A stretch of 59,213 nt of DNA from a virus (taxonomy: Duplodnaviria; Caudoviricetes): IMG/VR virus record IMGVR_UViG_3300032081_000715, positions 1-59,213 of that record. One strand, 5' to 3'. Both the position numbers and the translations under genes were made by a program. The notes under the pieces are model-generated. The model made no database searches. It was not told the origin of the DNA and saw only the letters and a list, made by a program, of their open reading frames with translations. Positions 1 to 59,213 of this stretch are shown here, in pieces. Numbering within the stretch: the first letter of the stretch is position 1; each line of letters begins with the position of its first letter.

Positions 1-2627
1 ACGGTTTTTATTAAAGTATAACAAGTAGAATTATAAAGACTTGAAAAACCTTGAACAACGTTAAATTTAAATTTGTCCCAATCGTTGTAGTTTTTCTGTA
101 TTAAGTAATTTTTAGTAGTATCGTCTTCTATGCTTCCTATTATATTTTCCTGCTCTTTTAAGTAACCATCTAAAAGTTTATATTCTTCTCCTAATATTTT
201 TGAATATTGTTGATACTCTTCAAAAGCTTTTTTATTTACCTTTCTACCATCATCGAGCACAACAAAATCTTGCATTTCATCTTGCCAATTTTCTATTCTA
301 CTATTTGCTCTTTTTAAAGCCTCTTGTTGTTCTTTTTCAAAGCTTTCAAGTTTGTTTATAACTTTACCAGCTTGCTCTTGATATTCTTTGTCAAATTCTT
401 TTAATTCATTTTGTAAATTTTGTTCATTTGTTTTTAAATCATTTTGATATGTACTCCATTGAGCTTGAGCTTGCTCATAAGATATTTTTCCATCATTAAG
501 ATTTTTTTGTATTTCATTAAATTTGTTTTCATATTCTTCTTGTGTTGGAAAAGTGTATTTATCTATAATTCTCTTACCAGCAGCATCATAACCCTCTTGG
601 CTCATTTCAACCTCTTCGCCATTTATTATTATTGGATTGTCTTTTTTTATTTGCTCAACTTTAATGTCAAACTTTTTTTGTGCATCTGCTTGCTTCTCTT
701 CTTCAGTATCGCCCTCTCCGTATATTATGCCTTCTTCTTTGTATACTTCTAAAGGATTAAAAATGTCTTCTAGTTTTTCAGCATCGTTAAAATTTTTTTC
801 GTGGTTTTTAATAACGTCATGCATTTCAATGTTTGTTAAACCAGTTTCTTCATTTTTTTTATTATTCCAATTTTCTGTTTTTGTTTTTAATACACCAAGG
901 TTATCTATTTGACTTTGAATATTTATATTAGAACCTATAGCAACCATAGTGTCATAAGCGTCATCACCATCAACATCATCTTTAAATTCACTGGTTTTTT
1001 GTTCTTGTTTTTCTTGTATTTTAAGGTTTGCTATTTCGTTTCTAACATAGTTTTCAATAGCCTTATCTTTTCCTAAAGCCTCTTCATCTGGTAAGATCAT
1101 TTGGTTAGGATTAGGTATGCTTTTACCTTCATATTTACCAGTTTTTTCATTAAAGGTAAAATACTCACCTGCCATTACATCATCAACATACTTATTATAC
1201 TGTTCTTCTGTTATATGCCCAATATCAAGATAGTACTTTAATTTTTCTTTATAAGAATCAGATGGCTTTAACATTTTTAAATCATACATACCACCTTTGT
1301 CTTTGTATAGCTCGTCCCAGTTTATTAAATCGTTACTTGTTTTTGCTTGAACTTCTTTAAGTATATATCCGTATTCTCCATCGTCTTGTGTTGTTACATC
1401 AGCACCGTATTTACCAATTGGCTTTTGAGTTCCATAAATACCTTCTTCGCCATCCTCACCATACAAAGGCATATTATTAACTTCTTCTATTATACTATTT
1501 TTTTCATCCTTTGTTACATCAATATATTTTTTTTCAATAGCATTGTATAACTTAACTGATTCTGATTGAAATTTACCCATGGCGATCCTGTCGCTATCGG
1601 ACATTGTTTTATCTAAAAATTTAGATAAATTTATACCTTGCCCTTTTTTGTCATAATTATATTCATATATAGTATGTTTTGTAGTTTCATCTGTATCAGG
1701 ATCTGTGTGAGTTATTTCTATACCATGGTAATTTCTTTTAGACGCACGATGTGCTGTTCCATCAAAAACACTACCGCCTTTAGCTCCATATATAGAGTTA
1801 TCCCAAAGTCCAGGTATACCTTTAAAACCACCACCTCTTACTTCAACAGTATAATTACCGTTTTCAACAAGCGGCTTAAAAAAATTTCCAAAATAACTTT
1901 CTTTATGATCCCAGTCATCTCTAACCCATAATTGAGGATCTTCTAAATTTTGTTTACCAAATACACCTTTTTCTGTATCGATTGTTATAGGTGTTCTTGA
2001 TGAAAAATCAAAGTTAATTTCAGTTTTAGTTCTACTGTCTAAATCTTTCCAACCATCAATGTTAAGCTCTTTATCAGTTTCTGCCATTGAAGCCCAGTCT
2101 TCAACGCTTATATCTTTAACTTTGTTTTTAAAAACCTCTTCTTTACTAGCAGGTAATTCTTCATCTCCTACTTTAATTTTAGGTACCTCAACAGGTTTAT
2201 CTAATTTAGTTAAAACACTTGTTGATGGATTAAAACCGTGAGTTCCATCATATATTTTTTTTCTAATTGAATCGCTATATGTAGGATCTTCGTGAAACGT
2301 GCTTCTATTGTTAAACCAATCAGGAGCATTTTCATAAGTTAAAACCTCATTAGGGTTACTGTTAAGAAATTCTTCAGATGATTTATCAATATCTAACGAT
2401 ACCGACGAACCATCTTCCGACTTGGATTCCGTATTTTCTTGTTGATTGTTTTGAGACGGACTTGTCTCGTTGATTTGTGTTTGCTCCGTCGACGTTTCGG
2501 TCGAGGAGCCTTCCTCCTTTCCCGCTTCTTCAACTTTTTTAGCGTTAGGATTGTCTATTAAGAATTGTTTTTCGTTTTGCGGATCTACCTCAAAAGGTTC
2601 TCCACCGTCTATTGTGTATTTTATCAT
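1..2627 (-). CDS. Giant virion/ejection-type protein, N-terminal part (at least 875 aa, 3'-truncated by window edge)
   Basis: Not in ORF track because it has no stop in the window. Hand translation from ATG at 2627 (MIKYTIDGGEPFEVDPQ...) is open to base 1 (...FNVVQGFSSLYNSTCYTLIKT). Acidic, coiled-coil-rich; follows ejection-type genes. Confidence 0.8.
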   Translation of the reverse strand, partial: MIKYTIDGGEPFEVDPQNEKQFLIDNPNAKKVEEAGKEEGSSTETSTEQTQINETSPSQNNQQENTESKSEDGSSVSLDIDKSSEEFLNSNPNEVLTYENAPDWFNNRSTFHEDPTYSDSIRKKIYDGTHGFNPSTSVLTKLDKPVEVPKIKVGDEELPASKEEVFKNKVKDISVEDWASMAETDKELNIDGWKDLDSRTKTEINFDFSSRTPITIDTEKGVFGKQNLEDPQLWVRDDWDHKESYFGNFFKPLVENGNYTVEVRGGGFKGIPGLWDNSIYGAKGGSVFDGTAHRASKRNYHGIEITHTDPDTDETTKHTIYEYNYDKKGQGINLSKFLDKTMSDSDRIAMGKFQSESVKLYNAIEKKYIDVTKDEKNSIIEEVNNMPLYGEDGEEGIYGTQKPIGKYGADVTTQDDGEYGYILKEVQAKTSNDLINWDELYKDKGGMYDLKMLKPSDSYKEKLKYYLDIGHITEEQYNKYVDDVMAGEYFTFNEKTGKYEGKSIPNPNQMILPDEEALGKDKAIENYVRNEIANLKIQEKQEQKTSEFKDDVDGDDAYDTMVAIGSNINIQSQIDNLGVLKTKTENWNNKKNEETGLTNIEMHDVIKNHEKNFNDAEKLEDIFNPLEVYKEEGIIYGEGDTEEEKQADAQKKFDIKVEQIKKDNPIIINGEEVEMSQEGYDAAGKRIIDKYTFPTQEEYENKFNEIQKNLNDGKISYEQAQAQWSTYQNDLKTNEQNLQNELKEFDKEYQEQAGKVINKLESFEKEQQEALKRANSRIENWQDEMQDFVVLDDGRKVNKKAFEEYQQYSKILGEEYKLLDGYLKEQENIIGSIEDDTTKNYLIQKNYNDWDKFKFNVVQGFSSLYNSTCYTLIKT
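2483..2523 (-). other. Candidate -1 programmed ribosomal frameshift signal (G_GGA_AAG, 7-nt spacer, 10-bp hairpin)
   Basis: Heptamer at 2523-2517 in X_XXY_YYZ phase (GCG GGA AAG). Hairpin GCTCCTCGAC-CGAAAC-GTCGA(C)GGAGC at 2509-2483. Confidence 0.65.
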
Positions 2628-3683: not shown

Positions 3684-4586
3684 TTATAATATTTTAAATT
3701 CAACATCAATTTTAGAATAATCAACTCTATCATAACTACCATTATTAATTACAGCGCTATTAGGTATCTCATCGGACATTACACCTTGGTAAGTATGTTC
3801 TCCAAAAAATTTATCAATATACTCAAATGCATATATTTTTAATCCGCTAGGTGATTTACTTATTAACTTAATATTCTTTTTTAATCTTTTATCGGAAAGT
3901 ATACCACCAAGTAAATTAAAGCCGCCTGATATAGCGCCACCTATTGCTTTGTCTTTTTGAGCTTGAGCAGCTGCTGCTGTACCTTGAGCATTTTGGTATT
4001 CTTGGTTAGCCGCGTCCATTAACGTTTTTCTTCTTGTCATATCCAGTTGTTGAGCAGCTTGTTCTCCACTCGCTATTCTCGTTGCTACCTCTGCTTCACC
4101 AGAAGCTTCTTTCAGTTGTAAGTTGCTAGCCTCCTGAGCCGTTGTTCTTTGGTTTGCAGCTTCTTGTTGACCTATACCAGCTGCAGATTTTTGAGCAGCT
4201 ATCTGTCCTTGCTGAGCTAATGATTGCGCTAAAGCAGCTATACCACTACCACCAGCGGCGCCTCTTAATCCAGACATAATATTAGATTGGCTTTGAGCAA
4301 ATTGTTGAGATGCAAATTCAGCTTCTTTTTTATTAATAGTTAGATCTTCCATTTTGTTTTCTAAACCAGCATAAGCATTTTGCATACCTTTAAAAGGATT
4401 ACTTATATCCATTGACATAAAATAATCCTGCATTTCTTTTTGGTTTTTCTTAGCTTCAGCTTCAGCCGCTTCAGCTTTTTTAGCAGCTTTACCAGCTTGT
4501 ATACCTTGATATACACCTCCTACTAAACCGCCAATAGCACCCCATATCTTAAATGGTGATTGTTCTTCTTTTTTAATTGTTGACAT
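3684..4586 (-). CDS. DNA-ejection/pilot-type virion protein with C-terminal peptidase S74-like (intramolecular chaperone) domain
   Basis: Gly/Ala/Gln-rich helical body with hydrophobic GG motifs; C-terminus SDKRLKKNI...YQGVMSDEI...VDYSKIDV. Confidence 0.6.
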   Translation of the reverse strand: MSTIKKEEQSPFKIWGAIGGLVGGVYQGIQAGKAAKKAEAAEAEAKKNQKEMQDYFMSMDISNPFKGMQNAYAGLENKMEDLTINKKEAEFASQQFAQSQSNIMSGLRGAAGGSGIAALAQSLAQQGQIAAQKSAAGIGQQEAANQRTTAQEASNLQLKEASGEAEVATRIASGEQAAQQLDMTRRKTLMDAANQEYQNAQGTAAAAQAQKDKAIGGAISGGFNLLGGILSDKRLKKNIKLISKSPSGLKIYAFEYIDKFFGEHTYQGVMSDEIPNSAVINNGSYDRVDYSKIDVEFKIL

Positions 4587-6553: not shown

Positions 6554-9500
6554 TTAAAAAGGTTTATTTTGTTCGCTATTATATGTTAGGTCATCTGAGT
6601 CAGTAGCCTGGATAGTAACCGTAGTTTCAGTTTGTGTTTCTACAGGTGTTGCTAAAGGAAGGCCAATACCTTGTACGGAAAATTCACTAGTATCTAAATT
6701 AGTTTCAGTAGTAGTATCTCCGTTTATTTTATTAAACCATTTACCTTCTTTTTCTATAAATTCATTAACATTACCAGTTTGTTTATCTGTAGTAATATTA
6801 TCTACATACCAGCCTGTTTTTCCGTCTATATTGTAATACTCTAAATCATTCATTACACCTAAATTATTCCCAGCTGAATCACTAACGTTACCATATGTAT
6901 CACTAAGGGGATCTGTATCTATAGTTCCGCCATATATAGTAAAATTTTCAGGATTAATACTAGTATCACGAAATTTATCTATTTTAGCTTGCGTTCCCTC
7001 GTAATTAATATTTTTAAAAGATTTAATAGAACCAGGTTGATCATTAAATAAAACTTCAATTTCTGAATTATATTGAACGTTGTAAAAGTTATTTCTAAGA
7101 GCAGTAGAACTATTGTGTTTCCATATAGTATTATCTTCAACAGAATAATATCTATCAGATAAACTAGTTGCTGTTAATGGAGTAAAAGACTTAAAGCTAA
7201 CCCAACCTTTAGCCGATTCACTAAAAGAAATTGTTTTAGAATCGAGCAGCGGGGTGTTTTGTGCAAATTTATTTATTTTATGTAAAGTAAGATTATATTC
7301 ATCTTCCACACCATCAAACGATCCAGATATGTTTACGTGGTATTTTAAATTTTCTCTAAAATAAGTTTTCATACCAACATCTGATATAGGCGTAACACCG
7401 TTACCAGATAATCTTAATACAGCACCTCTTTGTTTATCAGCAAAATACATTCTATAACCATCCATAGCTAATGACTCTGGATTAAGTGATATTCCATAAT
7501 CACCAGCAAATGGCATTGATGTACCTAAAACTCTATTAGTAGCGGTTAATTGAGTATTACCATCCGCATTAAACAAAGCGTCTTTACCACCTGATTGAAT
7601 TCTTAATACTTTATCTTCAGTAAAAACAACAACGTCATTATCTCTTGCGTGAGCAGCTTGGATAGAACCATATGTAGTATTTAAATCTTTTGTTATTTTT
7701 CCAGCCATGTTAAACTCATTTAAATTATTAACACTTGACGTGGAATTATATAAGCCTGAAAATATCATACCACTGGTTTTATTTTCTTCTCCGTAATTTA
7801 AAAATGTAGATGATACTTTTACACCGTTATCTATTTGAGGCGCATTAAAGTCATCTCTAATTCTATCAGACTCAACACCATTACCAAACGAGTAACAATT
7901 AAACCAACCTAACTCAACTGAATATTTCCATACTTCTTTTTCTATTTTAAAGTACCCTGTAACATCAATAAATGTAAAACTAGAACTACCCTCTGTTATT
8001 AAAGCTTGATTTAATTTAAATGAAGCGCCTTGAATACTTTTAACAAACGTCCCAGGTTTAACATTATCTCCAGTCACCTGCATTCCAACTGTTACATTAC
8101 CATAATTAGAATCACCAATACTTACGGTAATATAGTTATCAACGTTAGCATCGTCGCTATTTACGCCATCACCAGTTAGTGTATAGCGATCTGAAGGCAC
8201 AACAGCAGCTGTTACTACAGGCGCCGATGTACTAATAATTTTGTAGTGATCTAAAATTTTAGACTTAGTTACTAAGCCACTTTTGTTTTCAAATCTAACA
8301 ACGTCACCAATAGCAGCACACGTGGTATCAGATGTACCATCAGTTACTATTGTTGTTAACTTAGTTATACTACCATTAACAGTTCTTCTTATTTCTATAC
8401 CATCATCTCCTATAGTTTGATAAACAAATGGTTCACCAGATAGTGTTATATTTACAATATTATTATTTGTTATTTTTCTATTTTCAATATTAAATCCACT
8501 AGCTCTTTCTTTTATTTTATTTGCTCCAGTAAAATTTATTATATTTTCTTGCTTTAACCTAACAGGTATAGCTCCACTGGCTTCGTAGTATATATCTAAG
8601 CCTACATCTTCTTTAGGCTCTGTTTCAAAACATGCAGCACTTGTTGATATTGAGTCGTCTGACAAACTATTAACAGGTACTCTTTCTACAAAATCAATAG
8701 TCATACTACTAAGACCGTTATGTTTAACAGTTCCTCTAGGATCCCAAACCGTTGGGTCTAGCCCAGTATTTGGTTGTATTGGCTGGCCATTAGCGCCTAC
8801 TCTTTTAAATCTAACTATTATTGATACTCTATCAACATAATTACTAGATCCGTTATTATCAAAGTTTTTGCTTTCTATAGTTATTGGACCTGAAAGTGTT
8901 TCACCAGAGTCTCCTAACGTTTGTTCTTGTGTAGTTTCAACATAATAAACCTCTTGATTAGGATCATCTCTAAATCTAAACAAAGTACCAGTTTGTTGCA
9001 TTTTACTTTTAAAGTAAGAATTAGTACCTTGCCACGGTTGATTGTCTTCACTATTTGAATTTCCAATTGTAGAAAAAGTAAATTGACCAAGCGTGCCATC
9101 TGAAAGTGCTCCGTTAGATAATCCTTGTGGGTGCCAGTTTGAAGTGCCATCGACTGTGTTCATTGGAGTATATCCAGAGTTATAATCTATTAAAGCGTTA
9201 CCATCGTTTTGAGGTAAATTAAATCCACTGAAAGCTGGAACGCTATCTATAAATATATCAGCAGTTCTATTTGAGCTATTATACCAAGACACCCAAAACT
9301 CATCAGTAGCTCCAGAATCACCATTAAGGTTTATAAAGTTAGGTAAATCACCAGTTGTCCCTCCTATATTTGAGTTAGTAAATTGAGCAACTGTTTCCCA
9401 GTTTTCTGCTTCATAATCCATTTCTGAAGCATATTCGTTATCATCTAAAGCTGGATTAGTTGCTTCATCTGCTAAAAATGCAAGTTCGTAAGTATTTAAA

Positions 9501-22792: not shown

Positions 22793-23061
22793 TTTGATCT
22801 ACCTTCTGCAAAACCTTTAAACTTAACTTCTTTCTTTTCTTCGACTTTACCTTCAAGCATATTTTCTTCTTCGTTTATACGATTTAATATTTCAAAAGCA
22901 TCGAATATAGCTAACTTCTTTGTAGCCGCGGCATTCTTTAATCTATCAGCTGATATATCATCATCACTATCAACTATAGGTTCTTTAGCAACTTTAATTA
23001 ATTCTTCAACTGCTTTTTGCCCAGCTTGGATTATATTCTTCTTCGTTTCCTTGATATTCAT
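22789..23061 (-). CDS. Possible terminase small subunit
   Basis: 90 aa helical ORF overlapping the terL start. Confidence 0.4.
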   Translation of the reverse strand: MNIKETKKNIIQAGQKAVEELIKVAKEPIVDSDDDISADRLKNAAATKKLAIFDAFEILNRINEEENMLEGKVEEKKEVKFKGFAEGRSK

Positions 23062-23593
23062 ATTTAATTGTAATAAAATTATTCATAACCCTATATAACT
23101 TTTCTCCGTTAATAATAAATTCAAACTCACTATTAGGTCTAAATCCAACTAAGTCTTTTTTATTAAACTTACCATCAGAATATTTAACAATACCAATTAA
23201 TGGCCTTTCTGATTCTACGTTAAATTTATTTATAGCCTTTAAAGGTTTTACAAAACTAAAGCCTGGCATAGCAATCCAATTATCGCGCTTGTATAAATAT
23301 ATTTGATCTTTTGATATTATATATTTATTATCTTTCCAATATGATCTACTATTTTTTTCTCTACCTTTAACATCACTCCACCTTCTAAATATGTTATGAT
23401 GTACTATTATTTCATCACCTACCTTTAGAGGTGATTGAAACAATAGTGGAGTAGCGATAACTTTTGCTGATCTATTTATATATTGATGATTATAAATTTC
23501 AGTATTTAATACTAGTTCTTTGTCATCAATTTGTTTAGTGTTATTATAACGCCCGCCAATAGGAGAGACAATAAAATCTTTATAAGCATTCAT
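23006..23593 (-). CDS. GroES-like-fold protein
   Basis: VIATP...LKVGDEIIV.H and GIVKY...DLVGF...NGEKLYRV segments resemble co-chaperonin strands. Confidence 0.45.
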   Translation of the reverse strand: MNAYKDFIVSPIGGRYNNTKQIDDKELVLNTEIYNHQYINRSAKVIATPLLFQSPLKVGDEIIVHHNIFRRWSDVKGREKNSRSYWKDNKYIISKDQIYLYKRDNWIAMPGFSFVKPLKAINKFNVESERPLIGIVKYSDGKFNKKDLVGFRPNSEFEFIINGEKLYRVMNNFITIKYEYQGNEEEYNPSWAKSS

Positions 23594-27158: not shown

Positions 27159-27416
27159 TTATTCTACTATAACTATATCTCTAGCACGTATCACCCGGTA
27201 CATACTATCATTATAACTAATATCGTGACCAGCAACAGCATCATAGTAAACACTATTACCTCTTTTAACAATCGGCACATCATTCCCCACAGAAATGATA
27301 GTTCCTTTTTTATATCTGTTAGTTTCATCTGTTTCATCTGTTAATATGAAGCCACCAACTTTTTTTGGCCCTTCTTTTATTATATCTATTATTACGTAAT
27401 CGTTAACTGCTTGCAT
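27159..27416 (-). CDS. groES: Co-chaperonin GroES
   Basis: GGFIL mobile loop, GTIISVG, RARDI; coupled to groEL. Confidence 0.85.
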   Translation of the reverse strand: MQAVNDYVIIDIIKEGPKKVGGFILTDETDETNRYKKGTIISVGNDVPIVKRGNSVYYDAVAGHDISYNDSMYRVIRARDIVIVE

Positions 27417-28971
27417 TTTCTATTCTGATATTTGATATTACACAATCTGCTGACATGATAGTTAATGCTACACTTACAGCATTTTTAAGTGCAGACTTAG
27501 TTACAAGTACTGGATCAATAATACCAGACTCAACCATATTAACCTCTTTACTAGTTATGACATCTACACCTATGCCTTTTATAGGTCTTGGTGCCACTTG
27601 CTCCAAACCAGCATTGTCTAGTATAGTATTAAACGGTGCGGATAAAGCATTAAGTAATACCTTACCAGCTCTGCTGGTCGAAATTTTTTGGCTAGCGTTT
27701 AACAATGCTACCCCACCTCCTGGCACAATACCTTCTTGCAAAGCTGCTTTAGTTGCATATATAGCATCTTCAACTCTATCTTTCTTTTCTTTAAGCTCAA
27801 CCTTAGAGTTTGCTCCAACTTTAATTATACCAACACTACCTGATAACATAGCTAATCTGTCTTCTAGTTTCTTTTTAATAAAACCGTTTTGTTCTTCAGC
27901 TAAATGTTTATTTAATTCATCTATTCTATCTTCGATACCTTGAGTCATACCTTCAAGTGTTAATACTGTATTTTTATCGTCAGTTACGGCAAATTCAGCT
28001 TCACCTAAATATTCTGGTTTCATAAGATCTAAATCATCACCAAGTTCTTCATTTAATACTGTAGCGCCTGTAAGTATAGCTAAATCTTCTGTAGCATCTT
28101 TTTTAGTAGGACCAAAGCCAGGTAAGTCAATAATATTAACTTTTATAGTACCTTTTACTTTATTCATAAGCAACGCCGACTTTACTTGCTGTGCAACTGG
28201 TGCTACTATAAGTAAAGATCGGTTGTTCTTTATTACATACTCTAATATGTTTTGTATCTTACGTACATTAGGTATTTCAGAAGAACAAATAAAAACTAAC
28301 GGATTATCAAGTTCACATGTTTGTTTTTCTGTATTAGTAACAAAATGTGGTGATGTTAACTTACAATCTACTTTTACACCATCAACTATGTCTACGTATG
28401 TTTCTTCAGTTGGGCTCTCCTCCATGAGCACTACACCATTTTTACCAACTGTTTCGTACGCTTCTGCTATAATAGCGCCAAGTTCTTGATCGTTATTACA
28501 AGATATAGCACTAACAGACTTTAACATATCGCCTTCAACATCTATAGCTTTTTCATCTAAATAGCTAATAACGTCTTCCAGTGTTTTGTTAACTTCATCT
28601 TTAATTTCTCTGATTGTTAGATTTTCTGCGACCGCAGCATCTATTTGTTTGATTATTGCTTCAGCTAGTACAGTAGCAGTTGTTGTACCATCACCAGCTT
28701 CTTTAACTGTGTTTCTAGCTGCTTCCTTTATTAAGGTTGCACCCATATTCTCAACCGGATCATATAAGACTACGCTTTCCGCTACGGTTACACCATCTTT
28801 TGTTATGACCGGCTTGCCTCTGCCATCTTCGTAAATAACGCACTTACCTGATGCGCCTAATGTAGATTTTACGGCTTGGGCTAATTTATTAACTCCTGTG
28901 ATAACTTTGCTTTTAGCATCCTTGCCAAAAGACAAATCTTTCACCAATTCACTTGGTAAATTGTATTCCAT
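27403..28971 (-). CDS. groEL: Chaperonin GroEL
   Basis: TKDGVTVA, AGDGTTTATVLA, KDRVEDA, GIVPGGG, GIIDP motifs. Confidence 0.97.
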   Translation of the reverse strand: MEYNLPSELVKDLSFGKDAKSKVITGVNKLAQAVKSTLGASGKCVIYEDGRGKPVITKDGVTVAESVVLYDPVENMGATLIKEAARNTVKEAGDGTTTATVLAEAIIKQIDAAVAENLTIREIKDEVNKTLEDVISYLDEKAIDVEGDMLKSVSAISCNNDQELGAIIAEAYETVGKNGVVLMEESPTEETYVDIVDGVKVDCKLTSPHFVTNTEKQTCELDNPLVFICSSEIPNVRKIQNILEYVIKNNRSLLIVAPVAQQVKSALLMNKVKGTIKVNIIDLPGFGPTKKDATEDLAILTGATVLNEELGDDLDLMKPEYLGEAEFAVTDDKNTVLTLEGMTQGIEDRIDELNKHLAEEQNGFIKKKLEDRLAMLSGSVGIIKVGANSKVELKEKKDRVEDAIYATKAALQEGIVPGGGVALLNASQKISTSRAGKVLLNALSAPFNTILDNAGLEQVAPRPIKGIGVDVITSKEVNMVESGIIDPVLVTKSALKNAVSVALTIMSADCVISNIRIENASS

Positions 28972-55428: not shown

Positions 55429-58400
55429 TTATTGGTGAGCATAACATTTTTTGTTTTTATTCTCTGTTTTGTTCTTACATCTCTTTCCATTAGATTTAGT
55501 AGCGGTACATCTATATTCTTTCTTACCATCACCGTCTGTATCGCTACCATCTTTAAATGGCTTATGGTGTACACATAAGAATTTTTTGTCTGCAGTTTCA
55601 GTCGTTATCTTACATCTTTGACCATTAGAACGTATACCAGAACATCTAACAGTTTTAATACCTTTCTTTTTCTTTTCTTCTTCTTCTTTTTTCTTTTCTT
55701 CTTCTTTTGCTTTTTCTTTTTCTATTTTCTTTTGTTCTTTTTCTTTTTCTTTTTCAATCTTTTTCTTTTCGTCAATACGTTTTTTAGCAGCCTCTTTATC
55801 TTCGTCTTCAAGACCTAACTCCCAAGTGCTCCAACCTAAACCTAGCATTATTCTATTCCATGTAGAATGATTGCCTGTTATAGCTTCTTCTAGGTTATTA
55901 GCTTTTCTAACTAATCTTTGTGTTGGTAAATTAAATCCAGCTTCAAGTAAGCTAGCCCAGAAATATAATTTAGGACTTTCTATACGCCACCCTAACTCTT
56001 CACTAAGCTTACCACCTTTATCGTAATACTCAGATCGTATAGCTTGGTATACCTTTCTAGCCTTACTGCCTATTGGTGGAGAAAAACTAAGTAACTCTAA
56101 TAAAATTTTAGCATCTTCTCTGTTCCACGTTTTATCCTTTTCTTCTTTATAAACATTATATGTATTTTTTACAGTAGAAACAACAGCACCGTGCAAACCT
56201 ATTCCACGCAAGAAACTATCTAAAGTTCCATTAAATACTCGTTTTATATCTTTATCTTTTTCATCTTCATCATCTCCCCATAAAGAGTTAGCTAAAGCTT
56301 GTTGTAAAGCTAAGAATACAAAACTTTGTACAGCGCCGTAATACATTATTTTAGATATATTAGTTTTTGGATCACCTCTTCGGTTAACTAAATCAGATAA
56401 TGCCTTTTTAGTTAAACGAGTATATTGCATTGTGACGTTTTGAAAAGCTAATACAACCCTACCTAATACACTAGCTTGTTGCCCTGATACCATATCTTCT
56501 CTTGAAGACTGCTGAGTTTCTTCAGCAATTTCCTGCATGTCTAACATTGCTTGATCACTAGCTTGTTTATCAGTCATGCCTTGTTTTTTATAAGTATTAA
56601 ACCTATTTCTGTACATAGATGCACCACCAAAAGCAATAGCAAAACTATCTACAATTTGAGTAGGTTTAAAACCTAATTGTAGTAAGTAATTAATAAGTTT
56701 CCTTGGCGTTACTTTTCCATCAGAAAATGTTGCAGCTAACTCTGCCGCGTTTACATCTGTTTGTAAACCACCTCTTCTTTGTTTTAGTTGAGGGGAATTA
56801 AATATCATAGCAAAGTCTTTCCAAAACTGAGGCTGATTAGCAAATGCTTTAGCTGCTTTAAATATATTATTATCATTCCAGTTTATAAAGTTAACTGTAG
56901 ACAAAGTCTGTAGCACAGCTGACCTCATGTTAAAAAACATAATTGCACCAACAGAACCATTAATCCAGTCTAATAAATTATTAACGTTACTATCGGGACT
57001 AATTCTTCTATTAGTGCCGTTTTCCATACGATACATTATATTTTCTAAAGCTTTTCTAAAATTAGTACCATACACAGCTTCTATCTTGTTCATGTTTTCA
57101 GGAGTAAATATTGCCTCTGCGTTAGCCAAATAGTCTGCTAAAAATTGTTTTCTACCTATTTTATTTACTATGTTATTTAGATCACTAGCTATCGTGCCTA
57201 CTGCCCAACCTTCTTTTGGTTTTATATAACCTTCTTCTAATCTAGTAATTTTACTTAAAGTATCTGCATACTGTTTTATTTTATTGTTATTTAAAACGTG
57301 GTCTATTAATTTTTGTTTAGTAGCATTATCAATACCAGGTATATCAAAACCAGCTTTATCCCATAAGTAAACTCTTATAGCAGCATCAGTATTAAAAGCT
57401 GTTCCTTTTACATTTTTATACAAAGACTTACTTACTTCTTTAAAGTCTTTTCTCAGCTGTTTATACTCATTAACCATACCTTGTTTATAAGTATTCCAAG
57501 ACCGTATACCTTTTGCAAATGGGTCTAACAAGTTTTCTTTAAACCAAGCCATATGTTGATCACCTTGCTTGCCTGTGCCTAGAAACCTGTATAATAAACC
57601 TTTAAAGTCTTCCGCTGATGGCGGTACAAATATTCTCCACCAACCTTTATTTCTACCGGTTTTCATTGCCTCAGCTTGAGATATAACTTTTTTAGCATTA
57701 ATACCTTTTGACTCTTCTATTATTTTGTTAAATTCTTTACTAGCGTTTTTACTAAACTTAATTTTAGCTTGAACAACTTTAGATTTAATATCTAATTGAT
57801 CTAACACTTGTTTGACAGCTTCAACATTTTGTATAGCGTCATCAACAAAATACATATCATTATAGCCTTCAGCAAACTTTTCTAGCATCCATTGTGCTTT
57901 AGCATTTCCAGTGCTGTTAGCTAATCCTGTTATATTTTTTAATGGTATGTTTATTCCTTGAGAATCTAAAAACTGTTTTATTGCAGGAGCAGAAGCCTGA
58001 GGTCTAGCGGTTAAAACAAACATGTCTTTAGTGCCGTATTTCTTTGCTCTACTTCTAGCTTTATCCATTAACGGTCCAGGCTTGCCATCGACTACATCAT
58101 TAAACTCTGAAAAATCAAACTTACCACCTTTAGCTAATATAACGTCTCCTTGTTCAGCAAATTCAGTAGCATCTAATCTAACTTTTTCATAACTAGAAAC
58201 AAAATCATCCATTTGTTTTACTAATGTACTTGGCATTGGATCTTGTTGAGTTATATTATCTGTATTAACTTCCATAAACCTATTGCCAAACATATCTTTA
58301 AATGTAGGTTTATTACCTTGTACCGACTCATGATTACGTTTAACTATAGTATCTAACAACGATCTTTCTTTTCTAGCTCTATTACGCTCTAAGGCTACAT

Positions 58401-59213
58401 CTAATGAAGTATCTACAAATAACATACTAACATCATACCCTTTAGATTTAAATTCATTTACGAGGTTTTGCATTGATTTTACAGAGCCACCAGTACCGTC
58501 AACAACAACGCCATTAGCGTTACCTTGATACTTCATCATTTTATTTCTAGCTATTTTTCTAGACTCATGACCTAACTTACCAAGTATACTTCTTTGTTCA
58601 GAGGTCAGCTCTCTCATATCAGCTGGTAAACCATTATTCTTTTTCAACCACTCTAATGATATATCTGAGTTTACTATTTTAAAACCTTGGTTAGCTAAAT
58701 TTAGTTTGCTAATAACATTGCCTTTACCACTACCAGCGCCACCAGCTAAAAATATAACTTTACGTTTTGGTTTAGGTTTGCCATCGGTGTTAGGTATTGT
58801 GGCTCTAACGCCTGATTTAGTAAAACTTAAAGTATCATCAAAATCAAACGTTGACATACCTTTTACTACCGGTTTTTTACTAAACTTTATAAGATTATCT
58901 TTAGCTTTATACATAGCTGAAGACTTAGAGTTTTTTATGTTAGCACTTTTAACTAACTTTGTTTGTTCTTTAGAAAATGCTCTATCAGATTTTACTTCTT
59001 GAAAACTTTTACCATCTGAACTAAATATATTATTTAAATCTGTTTGCTTTAAAATATTTAATCTACTAAAACCAGCTGTACTTGTTTTACCACCTGGAGC
59101 TAAATCTATTAAATCCATAGTGTGTGTACTACCTAAAAATTGTGAGTGATTATTAAATACTAAATCTAACTCGGCATTAATATCAGTACCCTGAGGAGCG
59201 TATATTAACTCAG
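55429..59213 (-). CDS. Giant multidomain virion protein, C-terminal part (5'-truncated): HAD phosphatase with nested P-loop kinase, helical region, tandem C3H zinc fingers
   Basis: Frame stays open upstream of ATG 59118 to the window edge (ELIYAPQGTD...). Motifs: FDFDDT, GGAGSGK, VVDGT, LTAR, FVDD, RCxxxxSNGxRC...CxxH twice. Confidence 0.8.
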   Translation of the reverse strand, partial: ELIYAPQGTDINAELDLVFNNHSQFLGSTHTMDLIDLAPGGKTSTAGFSRLNILKQTDLNNIFSSDGKSFQEVKSDRAFSKEQTKLVKSANIKNSKSSAMYKAKDNLIKFSKKPVVKGMSTFDFDDTLSFTKSGVRATIPNTDGKPKPKRKVIFLAGGAGSGKGNVISKLNLANQGFKIVNSDISLEWLKKNNGLPADMRELTSEQRSILGKLGHESRKIARNKMMKYQGNANGVVVDGTGGSVKSMQNLVNEFKSKGYDVSMLFVDTSLDVALERNRARKERSLLDTIVKRNHESVQGNKPTFKDMFGNRFMEVNTDNITQQDPMPSTLVKQMDDFVSSYEKVRLDATEFAEQGDVILAKGGKFDFSEFNDVVDGKPGPLMDKARSRAKKYGTKDMFVLTARPQASAPAIKQFLDSQGINIPLKNITGLANSTGNAKAQWMLEKFAEGYNDMYFVDDAIQNVEAVKQVLDQLDIKSKVVQAKIKFSKNASKEFNKIIEESKGINAKKVISQAEAMKTGRNKGWWRIFVPPSAEDFKGLLYRFLGTGKQGDQHMAWFKENLLDPFAKGIRSWNTYKQGMVNEYKQLRKDFKEVSKSLYKNVKGTAFNTDAAIRVYLWDKAGFDIPGIDNATKQKLIDHVLNNNKIKQYADTLSKITRLEEGYIKPKEGWAVGTIASDLNNIVNKIGRKQFLADYLANAEAIFTPENMNKIEAVYGTNFRKALENIMYRMENGTNRRISPDSNVNNLLDWINGSVGAIMFFNMRSAVLQTLSTVNFINWNDNNIFKAAKAFANQPQFWKDFAMIFNSPQLKQRRGGLQTDVNAAELAATFSDGKVTPRKLINYLLQLGFKPTQIVDSFAIAFGGASMYRNRFNTYKKQGMTDKQASDQAMLDMQEIAEETQQSSREDMVSGQQASVLGRVVLAFQNVTMQYTRLTKKALSDLVNRRGDPKTNISKIMYYGAVQSFVFLALQQALANSLWGDDEDEKDKDIKRVFNGTLDSFLRGIGLHGAVVSTVKNTYNVYKEEKDKTWNREDAKILLELLSFSPPIGSKARKVYQAIRSEYYDKGGKLSEELGWRIESPKLYFWASLLEAGFNLPTQRLVRKANNLEEAITGNHSTWNRIMLGLGWSTWELGLEDEDKEAAKKRIDEKKKIEKEKEKEQKKIEKEKAKEEEKKKEEEEKKKKGIKTVRCSGIRSNGQRCKITTETADKKFLCVHHKPFKDGSDTDGDGKKEYRCTATKSNGKRCKNKTENKNKKCYAHQ

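Follow-up and report, generated by a model that had tools for sequence, protein, structure and literature searches.

The 5' end of a giant phage gene

We analysed the linear viral contig IMGVR_UViG_3300032081_000715 (Caudoviricetes), whose whole length of 59,213 bp constitutes the window (33% GC, estimated to be 90% complete), derived from a seawater phage, with respect to a putative programmed -1 frameshift site at the start of a giant gene on its minus strand. This strand encodes a large terminase, a portal protein, several families of the type 'virion structural protein' and GroEL/GroES, the gene order being terminase, portal, structural genes and then the giant gene. As judged by the portal protein, the nearest cultured relatives are Maribacter phage Panino and phages of Flavobacterium and Cellulophaga (41-52% identity), i.e. 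podoviruses of Flavobacteriia; podoviral morphology of Panino is given in the excerpted text of PMC11590407.

The giant gene occupies both ends of the contig. Its 5' part is the frame-0 open reading frame (ORF) at 3..2627 (minus strand), comprising 875 codons from the ATG at 2627, a start kept in the homologs P0002, P0008, P0012 and L015, before it is cut by the contig end. At the opposite contig end, the ORF at 55429..59211 (minus strand) comprises 1260 codons and encodes a P-loop domain of the AAA_33/Zeta_toxin type. Its product shares 66% identity over 1201 amino acids (aa) with the last 1200 aa of the complete 2783-aa L012 protein, which begins with the same frameshift cassette as the window gene, and the distance of the P-loop domain from the C-terminus, about 980 aa, matches that in the complete homologs of 2783 aa and 3687 aa. 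Because of the L012 match and this same domain placement we consider both ORFs as the 5' and 3' parts of one giant gene broken by the contig, encoding a protein of at least 2135 aa in the window (complete relatives, 2783-3687 aa). The N-terminal module (N-module), the -1 ORF and the first 875 aa of the giant protein matched no family in Pfam or PHROG.

All elements of the site lie on the minus strand. Codons 1-37 (2517..2627) encode the N-module, common to the giant protein and a predicted short isoform, and lead into the slippery heptamer G_GGA_AAG (2517..2523), codons 35-37 reading GCG GGA AAG in exact X_XXY_YYZ phase. Just upstream of the heptamer, a TGA read in the sequence (2530..2532) closes the -1 frame. 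Downstream, the 7-nt spacer GAGGAAG (2510..2516) separates the heptamer from a predicted stimulatory hairpin (2483..2509), a 10-bp stem containing a single bulged C and closed by a loop of 6 nt, followed by a small 5-bp stem GAGAC/GUCUC (2453..2468), which is the counterpart of the stimulatory stem of short-form relatives, and by an A-rich 23-nt block (2431..2453) reading QNNQQENT in frame 0 and KQSTRKY in the -1 frame. The -1 segment after the shift (2386..2517) comprises 43 codons and the TGA at 2388-2386; the predicted trans-frame product, i.e. the N-module plus the 43 -1 codons, has 80 aa. It ends in a conserved C-terminal tail of 15 aa (2389..2433) with the motif YG-h-x-h-G-x-[WY]-F-h-G (h, hydrophobic), in which a basic run precedes a Gly/aromatic-rich hydrophobic stretch with Arg or Lys in its middle. 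In frame 0, the stretch over the -1 ORF is a low-complexity acidic Ser/Thr linker. The phased heptamer, the GC-rich 10-bp hairpin 7 nt downstream and the -1 frame open for 43 codons had been noticed in a preliminary description of this DNA, of which all coordinates and counts hold.

The hairpin has a folding energy of -16.0 kcal/mol (z = -4.03), and none of 200 dinucleotide shuffles folds as well. The site shows three features of a canonical bacterial -1 frameshift cassette: a phased heptamer, an RNA structure within 5-9 nt downstream and, as described below, a conservation of heptamer and -1 ORF that exceeds the demands of frame 0. The spacer contains an AGGAGG, which is not kept in L012. The stretch 2250-2750 has no differences and no gaps compared to contigs of three DNA runs from three studies (one being possibly the source of the window), and all words sampled from it are present in 19 DNA sequencing runs of six studies (again with one or more being possibly the source); the window stretch around the site is error-free.

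The codon usage after the heptamer is the most aberrant of the contig. NCG codons account for 1.5% of codons across the 61 ORFs of the contig compared to 10 of the 44 codons following the heptamer, and the maximum per 44-codon window is 11 here and five in the next-best gene. Contig-wide, TCG makes up 4.1% of the Ser codons and ACG 9.3% of the Thr codons. The excess of TCG, TTG and ACG after the heptamer arises because their last G and the initial G of the codon that follows supply the GG of three Gly codons of the -1 frame; at these sites the frame-0 residues vary (S/L and E/V/G/D), whereas the -1 Gly residues are invariant. The impression in the preliminary description that the TCG and ACG codons are atypical holds, the NCG anomaly being the strongest of the contig.

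It is conceivable that a GC-rich, stop-poor, low-complexity stretch follows one of the 138 in-phase XXXYYYZ heptamers in the ORFs of the contig by chance. The longest -1 run after such a heptamer is the one described here (43 codons; next 32), and as a best-of-138 pick the window site on its own lies only partly beyond chance. Besides, three of 2820 -1 runs in the contig reach at least 43 codons, i.e. two further ones, the local GC content of 0.47-0.49 compared to 0.33 is reached by other contig windows (up to 0.50), and several antisense frames as well as the +1 frame are open, the latter as a 46-aa Arg/Lys-rich ORF (2533..2393, minus strand) expected from the amino-acid composition (P = 0.29). 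In contrast, with the frame-0 protein and the codon usage of the contig taken as given, an exact calculation puts the probability of an open -1 frame at 2.9e-4, and chance is contradicted by the comparative results presented in the following. Judged from the alignments, these settle that the site exceeds chance, leaving a fortuitous origin extremely improbable.

Conservation among thirteen related 5' ends

Relatives of the giant protein were collected by a HMMER scan of 1.84 billion proteins, in which the low-complexity segment past the N-module is conserved in proteins with differing N-modules. Related DNA was collected by a protein-pattern scan of viral contigs combined with an exact scan for the 23-nt A-rich block, resulting in a set of 13 distinct sequences including the window. 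Each of the 13 is situated at the beginning of a very long ORF (stop-to-stop lengths of 2788, at least 2858 and 3697 codons). The degenerate motif CARAAYAAYCARCARGARAAYAC matched 20 stretches, twelve being family loci and eight being unrelated and derived from two other gene families; the scan with this motif revealed no family member with synonymous variants of the A-rich block. A metagenome scan for relatives gave one locus only, which is a duplicate of L012, no close relative was confirmed in viral contigs with the 875-aa protein as query, and neither tblastn of the protein nor blastn of 2380-2630 gave a match in 50,697 phage records.

The heptamer is found in phase in 12 of the 13 sequences, as GGA-AAG in ten and as GGA-AAT in two; the sequences had been identified through a motif 28-82 nt downstream of the heptamer. 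The codon preceding GGA-AA[G/T] is GCG, CCG, GTG, TTG, ACG or TCG and encodes Ala, Pro, Val, Leu, Thr or Ser, respectively, all of these G-ending codons being rare with a usage of 4-9% in the window contig. What is conserved in the heptamer is the nucleotide sequence and not the protein. All 12 heptamer-bearing sequences have a -1 stop 3-15 nt upstream of the heptamer. Internal initiation as a way into the -1 ORF was dismissed, since no ATG, GTG or TTG was seen between this upstream stop and the heptamer in the sequences inspected. After the heptamer, none of the 12 sequences has a stop in the -1 frame until the terminal one, 65-74 nt past the start of the A-rich block, which falls on the same aligned codon in six sequences and at most three codons off in the other six. 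L011, the sole heptamer-less sequence (GCG GGT AAG), shows an immediate -1 stop, four -1 stops and no tail.

The 15-codon tail is best conserved in the -1 frame, with a pairwise identity of 0.56 and a BLOSUM62 score of 3.2 per site, compared to 0.44 and 1.43 in frame 0 and 0.34 and 1.05 in the +1 frame. The entropy of the tail is highest at frame-0 codon position 2, corresponding to the -1 wobble position (0.96; 0.55 at position 1 and 0.79 at position 3), and the replacements are conservative in the -1 frame, i.e. V/F/I/L, W/Y and R/K. The A-rich 23-nt block is identical in 12 related viral loci, an identity that partly follows from how the search was constructed. The +1 frame was dismissed as a coding frame because its ends vary, stops interrupt it in four of the 12 heptamer-bearing sequences, it is the least conserved of the three frames and its openness in the window is expected. 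The 48-aa protein P0025, which reads the +1 frame after an A-run at codons 30-31, was taken as the result of an indel or read error.

An oligo-dT marine RNA run (X20) contains a 151-nt contig that derives from a relative; it covers the N-module and the heptamer, shows 10 differences to the window in 2517-2649 and diverges from it exactly past the heptamer. This contig is no evidence for transcription of the window, and it suggests the heptamer being a mosaic boundary between N-modules and downstream cassettes.

Two architectures of the downstream RNA can be distinguished. Eight of the 12 heptamer loci are short forms with a 5-bp stem 6 nt after the heptamer, and four are long forms (window, L012, L010 and L007) with 42-54 nt inserted, of which all but L007 show a stem of 7-10 bp at a distance of 6-7 nt from the heptamer. 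The 5-bp stem stands directly before the A-rich block in all 13 sequences, in four sequence versions with the pairing kept: 60 of 60 cells are paired, three of the five pairs show double-sided changes and none of 500 shuffles is as good. In the long forms, with about 49 nt between it and the heptamer, this 5-bp stem is out of range for stimulating a shift. For 11 GGGAAAN loci chosen for their common stem geometry, a 9-bp stem beginning 6 nt past the heptamer was analysed; 90 of 90 cells are paired compared to 23-46% in slid controls, none of 500 shuffles is as good, and 15 cells are double-sided, with four pairs changing on both sides. In-phase GGGAAAN, a downstream stem, a stop-free -1 frame and a conserved YGIxxGRxF-like C-terminus are what the preliminary description had proposed to look for in homologous 5' ends, and all four are borne out by the relatives, the stem 6-7 nt after the heptamer with compensatory changes and the C-terminus being better conserved in the -1 frame than in frame 0.

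Many -1 ORFs are Cys-rich (C-x2-C-x-C...) in the 45 nt that follow the heptamer, as in L027, L030, L035, L046, L088, L112, L113, L118, L121 and L143. The Cys codons coincide with the arms of the stimulatory stem and may be a by-product of RNA structure rather than a metal-binding motif; the -1 ORF of the window has no Cys.

Selection on the stems would also be expected if the 5' end of the giant gene harbours an RNA or DNA regulatory element acting on translation, pausing or mRNA stability, with the -1 ORF being an untranslated by-product. L011 retaining the small stem and the A-rich block without heptamer or tail agrees with such an element, as do the position of the small stem in the long forms beyond the stimulating range and the coincidence of the Cys-rich pattern with the stem arms, by which the -1 'protein' would be partly RNA-shaped. 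An element of this kind does not account for tail variation concentrating at the -1 wobble position, for the conservative -1 replacements and the three invariant Gly residues, for the maintained position of the -1 stop or for the first G of the heptamer being kept through six codon families; moreover, unrelated slippery sites lead to the same tail frame in the wider family described below, and the tail region itself has no conserved stem. We therefore regard a regulatory element without translation of the -1 ORF as unlikely. Taken together, the comparisons show that the heptamer, the stems and the protein-coding capacity of the -1 frame are all under selection.

A wider family of tail-bearing cassettes

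A degenerate-DNA search of viral contigs for the tail alone, i.e. without heptamer or A-rich block, gave at least 120 matches. Together with the earlier loci, the matches listed comprise at least 127 distinct tail-bearing sequences, and the counts for the tail family given here refer to these 127. In all of them the tail frame is a short ORF that ends 42-90 nt after the Tyr codon and overlaps a long ORF. A first ATG was found in 124 of the 127, the Tyr codon lying 41-118 codons after it, and the complete long ORFs encode 1144-3269 aa from the first ATG. The arrangement is not restricted to this phage; the window site is one member of a large family, many members of which use A-runs of at least 7 nt.

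The site preceding the tail frame differs between the members. We found GGGAAAN in phase in 44 sequences, an A-run of at least 7 nt, mostly A9-A11, in 52 and another in-phase heptamer (A_AAA_AAG, A_AAT_TTT and others) in 13; the remaining 18 have no canonical heptamer but GAT_TTT_C or NNA_AAG. A downstream stem, counted if starting 4-9 nt downstream with a minimum free energy of -6 or lower, accompanies 84% of the 44 GGGAAAN sites compared to 21% of the 52 A-runs, with mean stem z values of -2.54 and -0.67, respectively (mononucleotide shuffles). Stems standing mostly at GGGAAAN and rarely at A-runs are expected if the GGGAAAN sites are ribosomal. One predicted trans-frame product being reached via several kinds of slippery sites, with stems only where ribosomal slippage would require them, points to real recoding and is hard to explain otherwise.

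The 52 A-runs, usually lacking a downstream stem, raise the alternative of transcriptional slippage, in which an extra mRNA base and not the ribosome would give the -1 frame. Runs of nine A or T make bacterial RNA polymerase slip (excerpt of PMC5009743), and the A9 run of Panino, as deposited, leaves neither continuation in the frame of the N-module. The junction of the window, by contrast, consists of G3A3 only, without a homopolymer run of about nine or more as the feature of transcriptional slippage, and its geometry of phased heptamer, 7-nt spacer and stem is ribosomal. The phase is irrelevant to a polymerase, yet all GGGAAAN sites counted are in phase and most are followed by a stem. For the window we consider transcriptional slippage very unlikely.

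Panino (L264, PP540027.1) provides a cultured example carrying the cassette, unannotated, at about 8620-8900. Its giant gene is annotated as 'tRNA methyltransferase' with an internal GTG start and is located after the structural genes as in the window. Upstream of it, an unannotated N-module ORF leads into the A9 run, past which the tail frame contains two tandem copies of the tail motif and then a stop, and the giant frame opens. Relative to the N-module of the deposited sequence, the giant ORF is in -1 and the tail ORF in +1; either the length of the A9 run was mis-called or both products need slippage. The record places an opposite-strand hypothetical coding sequence over the N-module, and frameshifting is nowhere mentioned in the text of the Panino paper (PMC11590407; 0 occurrences).

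Four database proteins of 84-101 aa combine N-module, KKK and tail in a single ORF and may be natural run-length variants or homopolymer errors.

A scan of genome contigs for the tail pattern gave 121 matches, 93 of them in long ORFs of the Leu/Phe-tRNA-protein transferase type (assigned by a motif heuristic; one example checked matched PF03588, E = 6e-70), 14 being cassette-like and 14 other. The cassette-like matches do not name a host, because phage contigs can be binned into metagenome-assembled genomes. The core of bacterial Leu/Phe-tRNA-protein transferase, YG-x-x-x-G-x-x-FFGESMF, is similar to the tail motif (L144-L263), a likeness that is probably coincidental.

The breadth of the family also bears on the value of the short product. 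A real shift might act as an attenuator only, lowering synthesis of the giant protein and leaving the short product as waste. The site is among the first 40 codons, so that ribosomes would be diverted at the point of greatest saving, L011 manages without the short product, and this product matched no family in Pfam and no fold in a single-sequence model. A mere sink, however, would need only a nearby -1 stop, whereas a Y-G...G...F-G tail of 15-25 aa and fixed length is kept in at least 127 sequences with differing N-modules and slip sites. Because the tail is well conserved, a role as attenuator only is highly improbable.

Proposed model of recoding and relation to known systems

From these comparisons we consider it likely, with good confidence, that a programmed -1 ribosomal frameshift takes place within the first 40 codons of the giant phage gene. 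Translation would begin at ATG 2627 and yield the 37-residue N-module. The ribosome would meet the 10-bp hairpin 7 nt downstream while its P and A sites are occupied by GGA and AAG, respectively, and a fraction of ribosomes would slip one base back onto GGG-AAA, translate the 43 -1 codons and stop at the TGA 2388-2386. The resulting 80-aa product would consist of the N-module, a basic linker and the conserved glycine/aromatic tail, and the other ribosomes would stay in frame 0 to produce the giant protein, whose acidic Ser/Thr linker could tolerate the constraint of the second frame. In relatives with an A-run (at least 7, mostly A9-A11) the same tail frame would be reached via slippage of the RNA polymerase or of the ribosome on the run. 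The ribosomal nature of the shift, its efficiency and the role of the short isoform are inferred. Our best guess is that the short isoform is a small partner supplied at a fixed ratio, combining the N-module of the giant protein with a portable interaction or anchoring peptide; we likewise guess that the tail is a docking or anchoring peptide and that the ratio of small to giant product is set by the shift. The shift would also cut the ribosome flow into the giant ORF. The preliminary description had gone further in speaking of a giant ejected virion protein, of stoichiometry and of a chaperone or membrane-active partner, for which the status of suppositions is appropriate.

Several observations weigh against this interpretation. 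The case is built on sequence comparison, the sequences are mutually related so that their counts are not independent events, and the conservation of A-rich block and tail is partly by construction, since both samples were collected by means of pieces of the -1 ORF. The hairpin signal of the window weakens when a context of 151 nt is folded (z = -2.09; five of 200 shuffles fold as well), and the -1 frame includes the rare codons CTC, GTC, CGA and ATC. L007, carrying G_GGA_AAT, has no convincing stem (z = +0.54 over 82 nt and -1.44 over 45 nt), G_GGA_AAT is also carried by L010, and Gly-Lys is missing from the equivalent position of the protein relatives P0003 and P0012. L011 lost heptamer and tail and keeps the small stem and the A-rich block (L011:12887-12934); the predicted short isoform is apparently dispensable in at least this one lineage, and small stem and A-rich block may have a further role. 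An AlphaFold single-sequence model of the one-ORF protein P0077 has a mean pLDDT of 55, with the tail below 50. Finally, a tRNA-Lys(CUU), if present in the host, would lower slippage on A_AAG (excerpt of PMC5009743).

We lean, if only slightly, towards a more general reading of the data, in which a large recoding cassette of aquatic phages alternatively joins the N-module of a giant, probably virion-associated protein to a portable overprinted tail, with ribosomal and transcriptional slippage being interchangeable and the tail being a new functional peptide. The portable tail would comprise 15-25 residues, YG-h-x-h-G-[RK]-[WY]-F-h-G-h-[TS]-[RK], overprinted on the acidic linker, and could serve, for example, in anchoring or targeting copies of the N-module beside the giant protein. 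Lineages would differ in the route to the tail frame, using G_GGA_AAG plus stem, A_AAA_AAG, A_AAT_TTT, a bare A_AAG or A9-A11 runs.

The tail assembly chaperone pair gpG/gpGT of phage lambda has analogues in long-tailed phages; its slippery site is GGGAAAG, of the same heptamer type as that of the window. In lambda the shift is located near the 3' end of a small gene and extends the product, the pair lying upstream of the tape measure gene of a long tail, whereas the window site is placed within the giant gene itself (at least 2135 aa), after some 35 codons, and the shift truncates the product; moreover, the nearest cultured relatives of the window are podoviruses. No chaperone family as in the lambda-type pair was matched in Pfam or PHROG. 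Common to both systems are a -1 shift in a gene of the phage morphogenesis module and two proteins with one N-terminus at a set ratio (lambda: excerpt of PMC5009743; window: predicted).

The outcome is rather that of E. coli dnaX (tau/gamma), in which a -1 shift with a stem-loop gives a shorter product with a shared N-terminus (excerpt of PMC5009743). The window corresponds to it with a predicted 80 aa compared to at least 2135 aa and a shared N-terminus, in the sense of working alike, no homology of the window gene to dnaX being found in Pfam; the dnaX heptamer is A_AAA_AAG with an upstream Shine-Dalgarno stimulator, and the heptamer of the window differs from it. In other species dnaX reaches the same outcome by transcriptional slippage on an A-run (same excerpt), and this ribosomal/transcriptional pair parallels the two site types of the tail family. 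The mechanism as such is therefore classical: a truncating shift is known from dnaX, and G_GGA_AAG is listed as highly shift-prone in E. coli (excerpt of PMC5009743). The preliminary description had considered the arrangement undescribed, and no description of the cassette was found in the literature searched, on which the Panino annotation tables and PRFect lists could still bear; the truncating outcome, in contrast, has its precedent in dnaX. As far as the literature searched goes, the gene context, the overprinted conserved tail and the breadth of the family with interchangeable slip sites are new.

Slippage into a short conserved overprinted ORF, resulting in a truncated protein with a new functional C-terminus, is known from alphavirus TF, cardiovirus 2B* and potyvirus P3N-PIPO. 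These belong to eukaryotic RNA viruses and use other slip sites and stimulators, whereas the window represents a dsDNA phage with a giant main ORF and overprinting over a disordered linker. Among podoviruses, T7 gene 10A/10B uses a -1 frameshift in a structural gene, located at the 3' end and extending the capsid protein, and is not known to have a conserved overprinted tail of the window kind. To our knowledge, the tail-chaperone pair and a few capsid genes are almost the only known cases of recoding in tailed phages. If our reading is true, the tail cassette, widespread in more than a hundred other phage genomes and overlooked so far, would be a second widespread phage recoding cassette, placed in another gene class (giant multi-domain genes ending the structural module) and yielding a short isoform, the reverse of the outcome in those cases. 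Gene callers missed the cassette in Panino, so that giant phage genes may systematically carry wrong starts in databases. With dozens of natural slip-site and stimulator variants serving one conserved product, the family would be useful for studying frameshift efficiency in Bacteroidota and other marine hosts, and the cassette would give a handle on the biology of giant phage proteins.

The cassette-bearing giant protein at L061:2105-5914 (minus strand, 1270 aa) weakly matches the N-terminal part of the PHROG family 'virion RNA polymerase' (E = 2.8e-9), which hints at the giant proteins being packaged virion proteins. In the window, the GroEL-like protein (phrog_5725, E = 3e-137) is encoded at 27403-28971 and the GroES-like protein (phrog_13932) at 23006-23593, both on the minus strand. 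A second GC-rich island at 3900-4275, within the gene at 3684-4586 (minus strand), reaches a GC content of up to 0.49 and is accounted for by an Ala/Gly/Gln-rich segment with ordinary codons rather than by the choice of codons.

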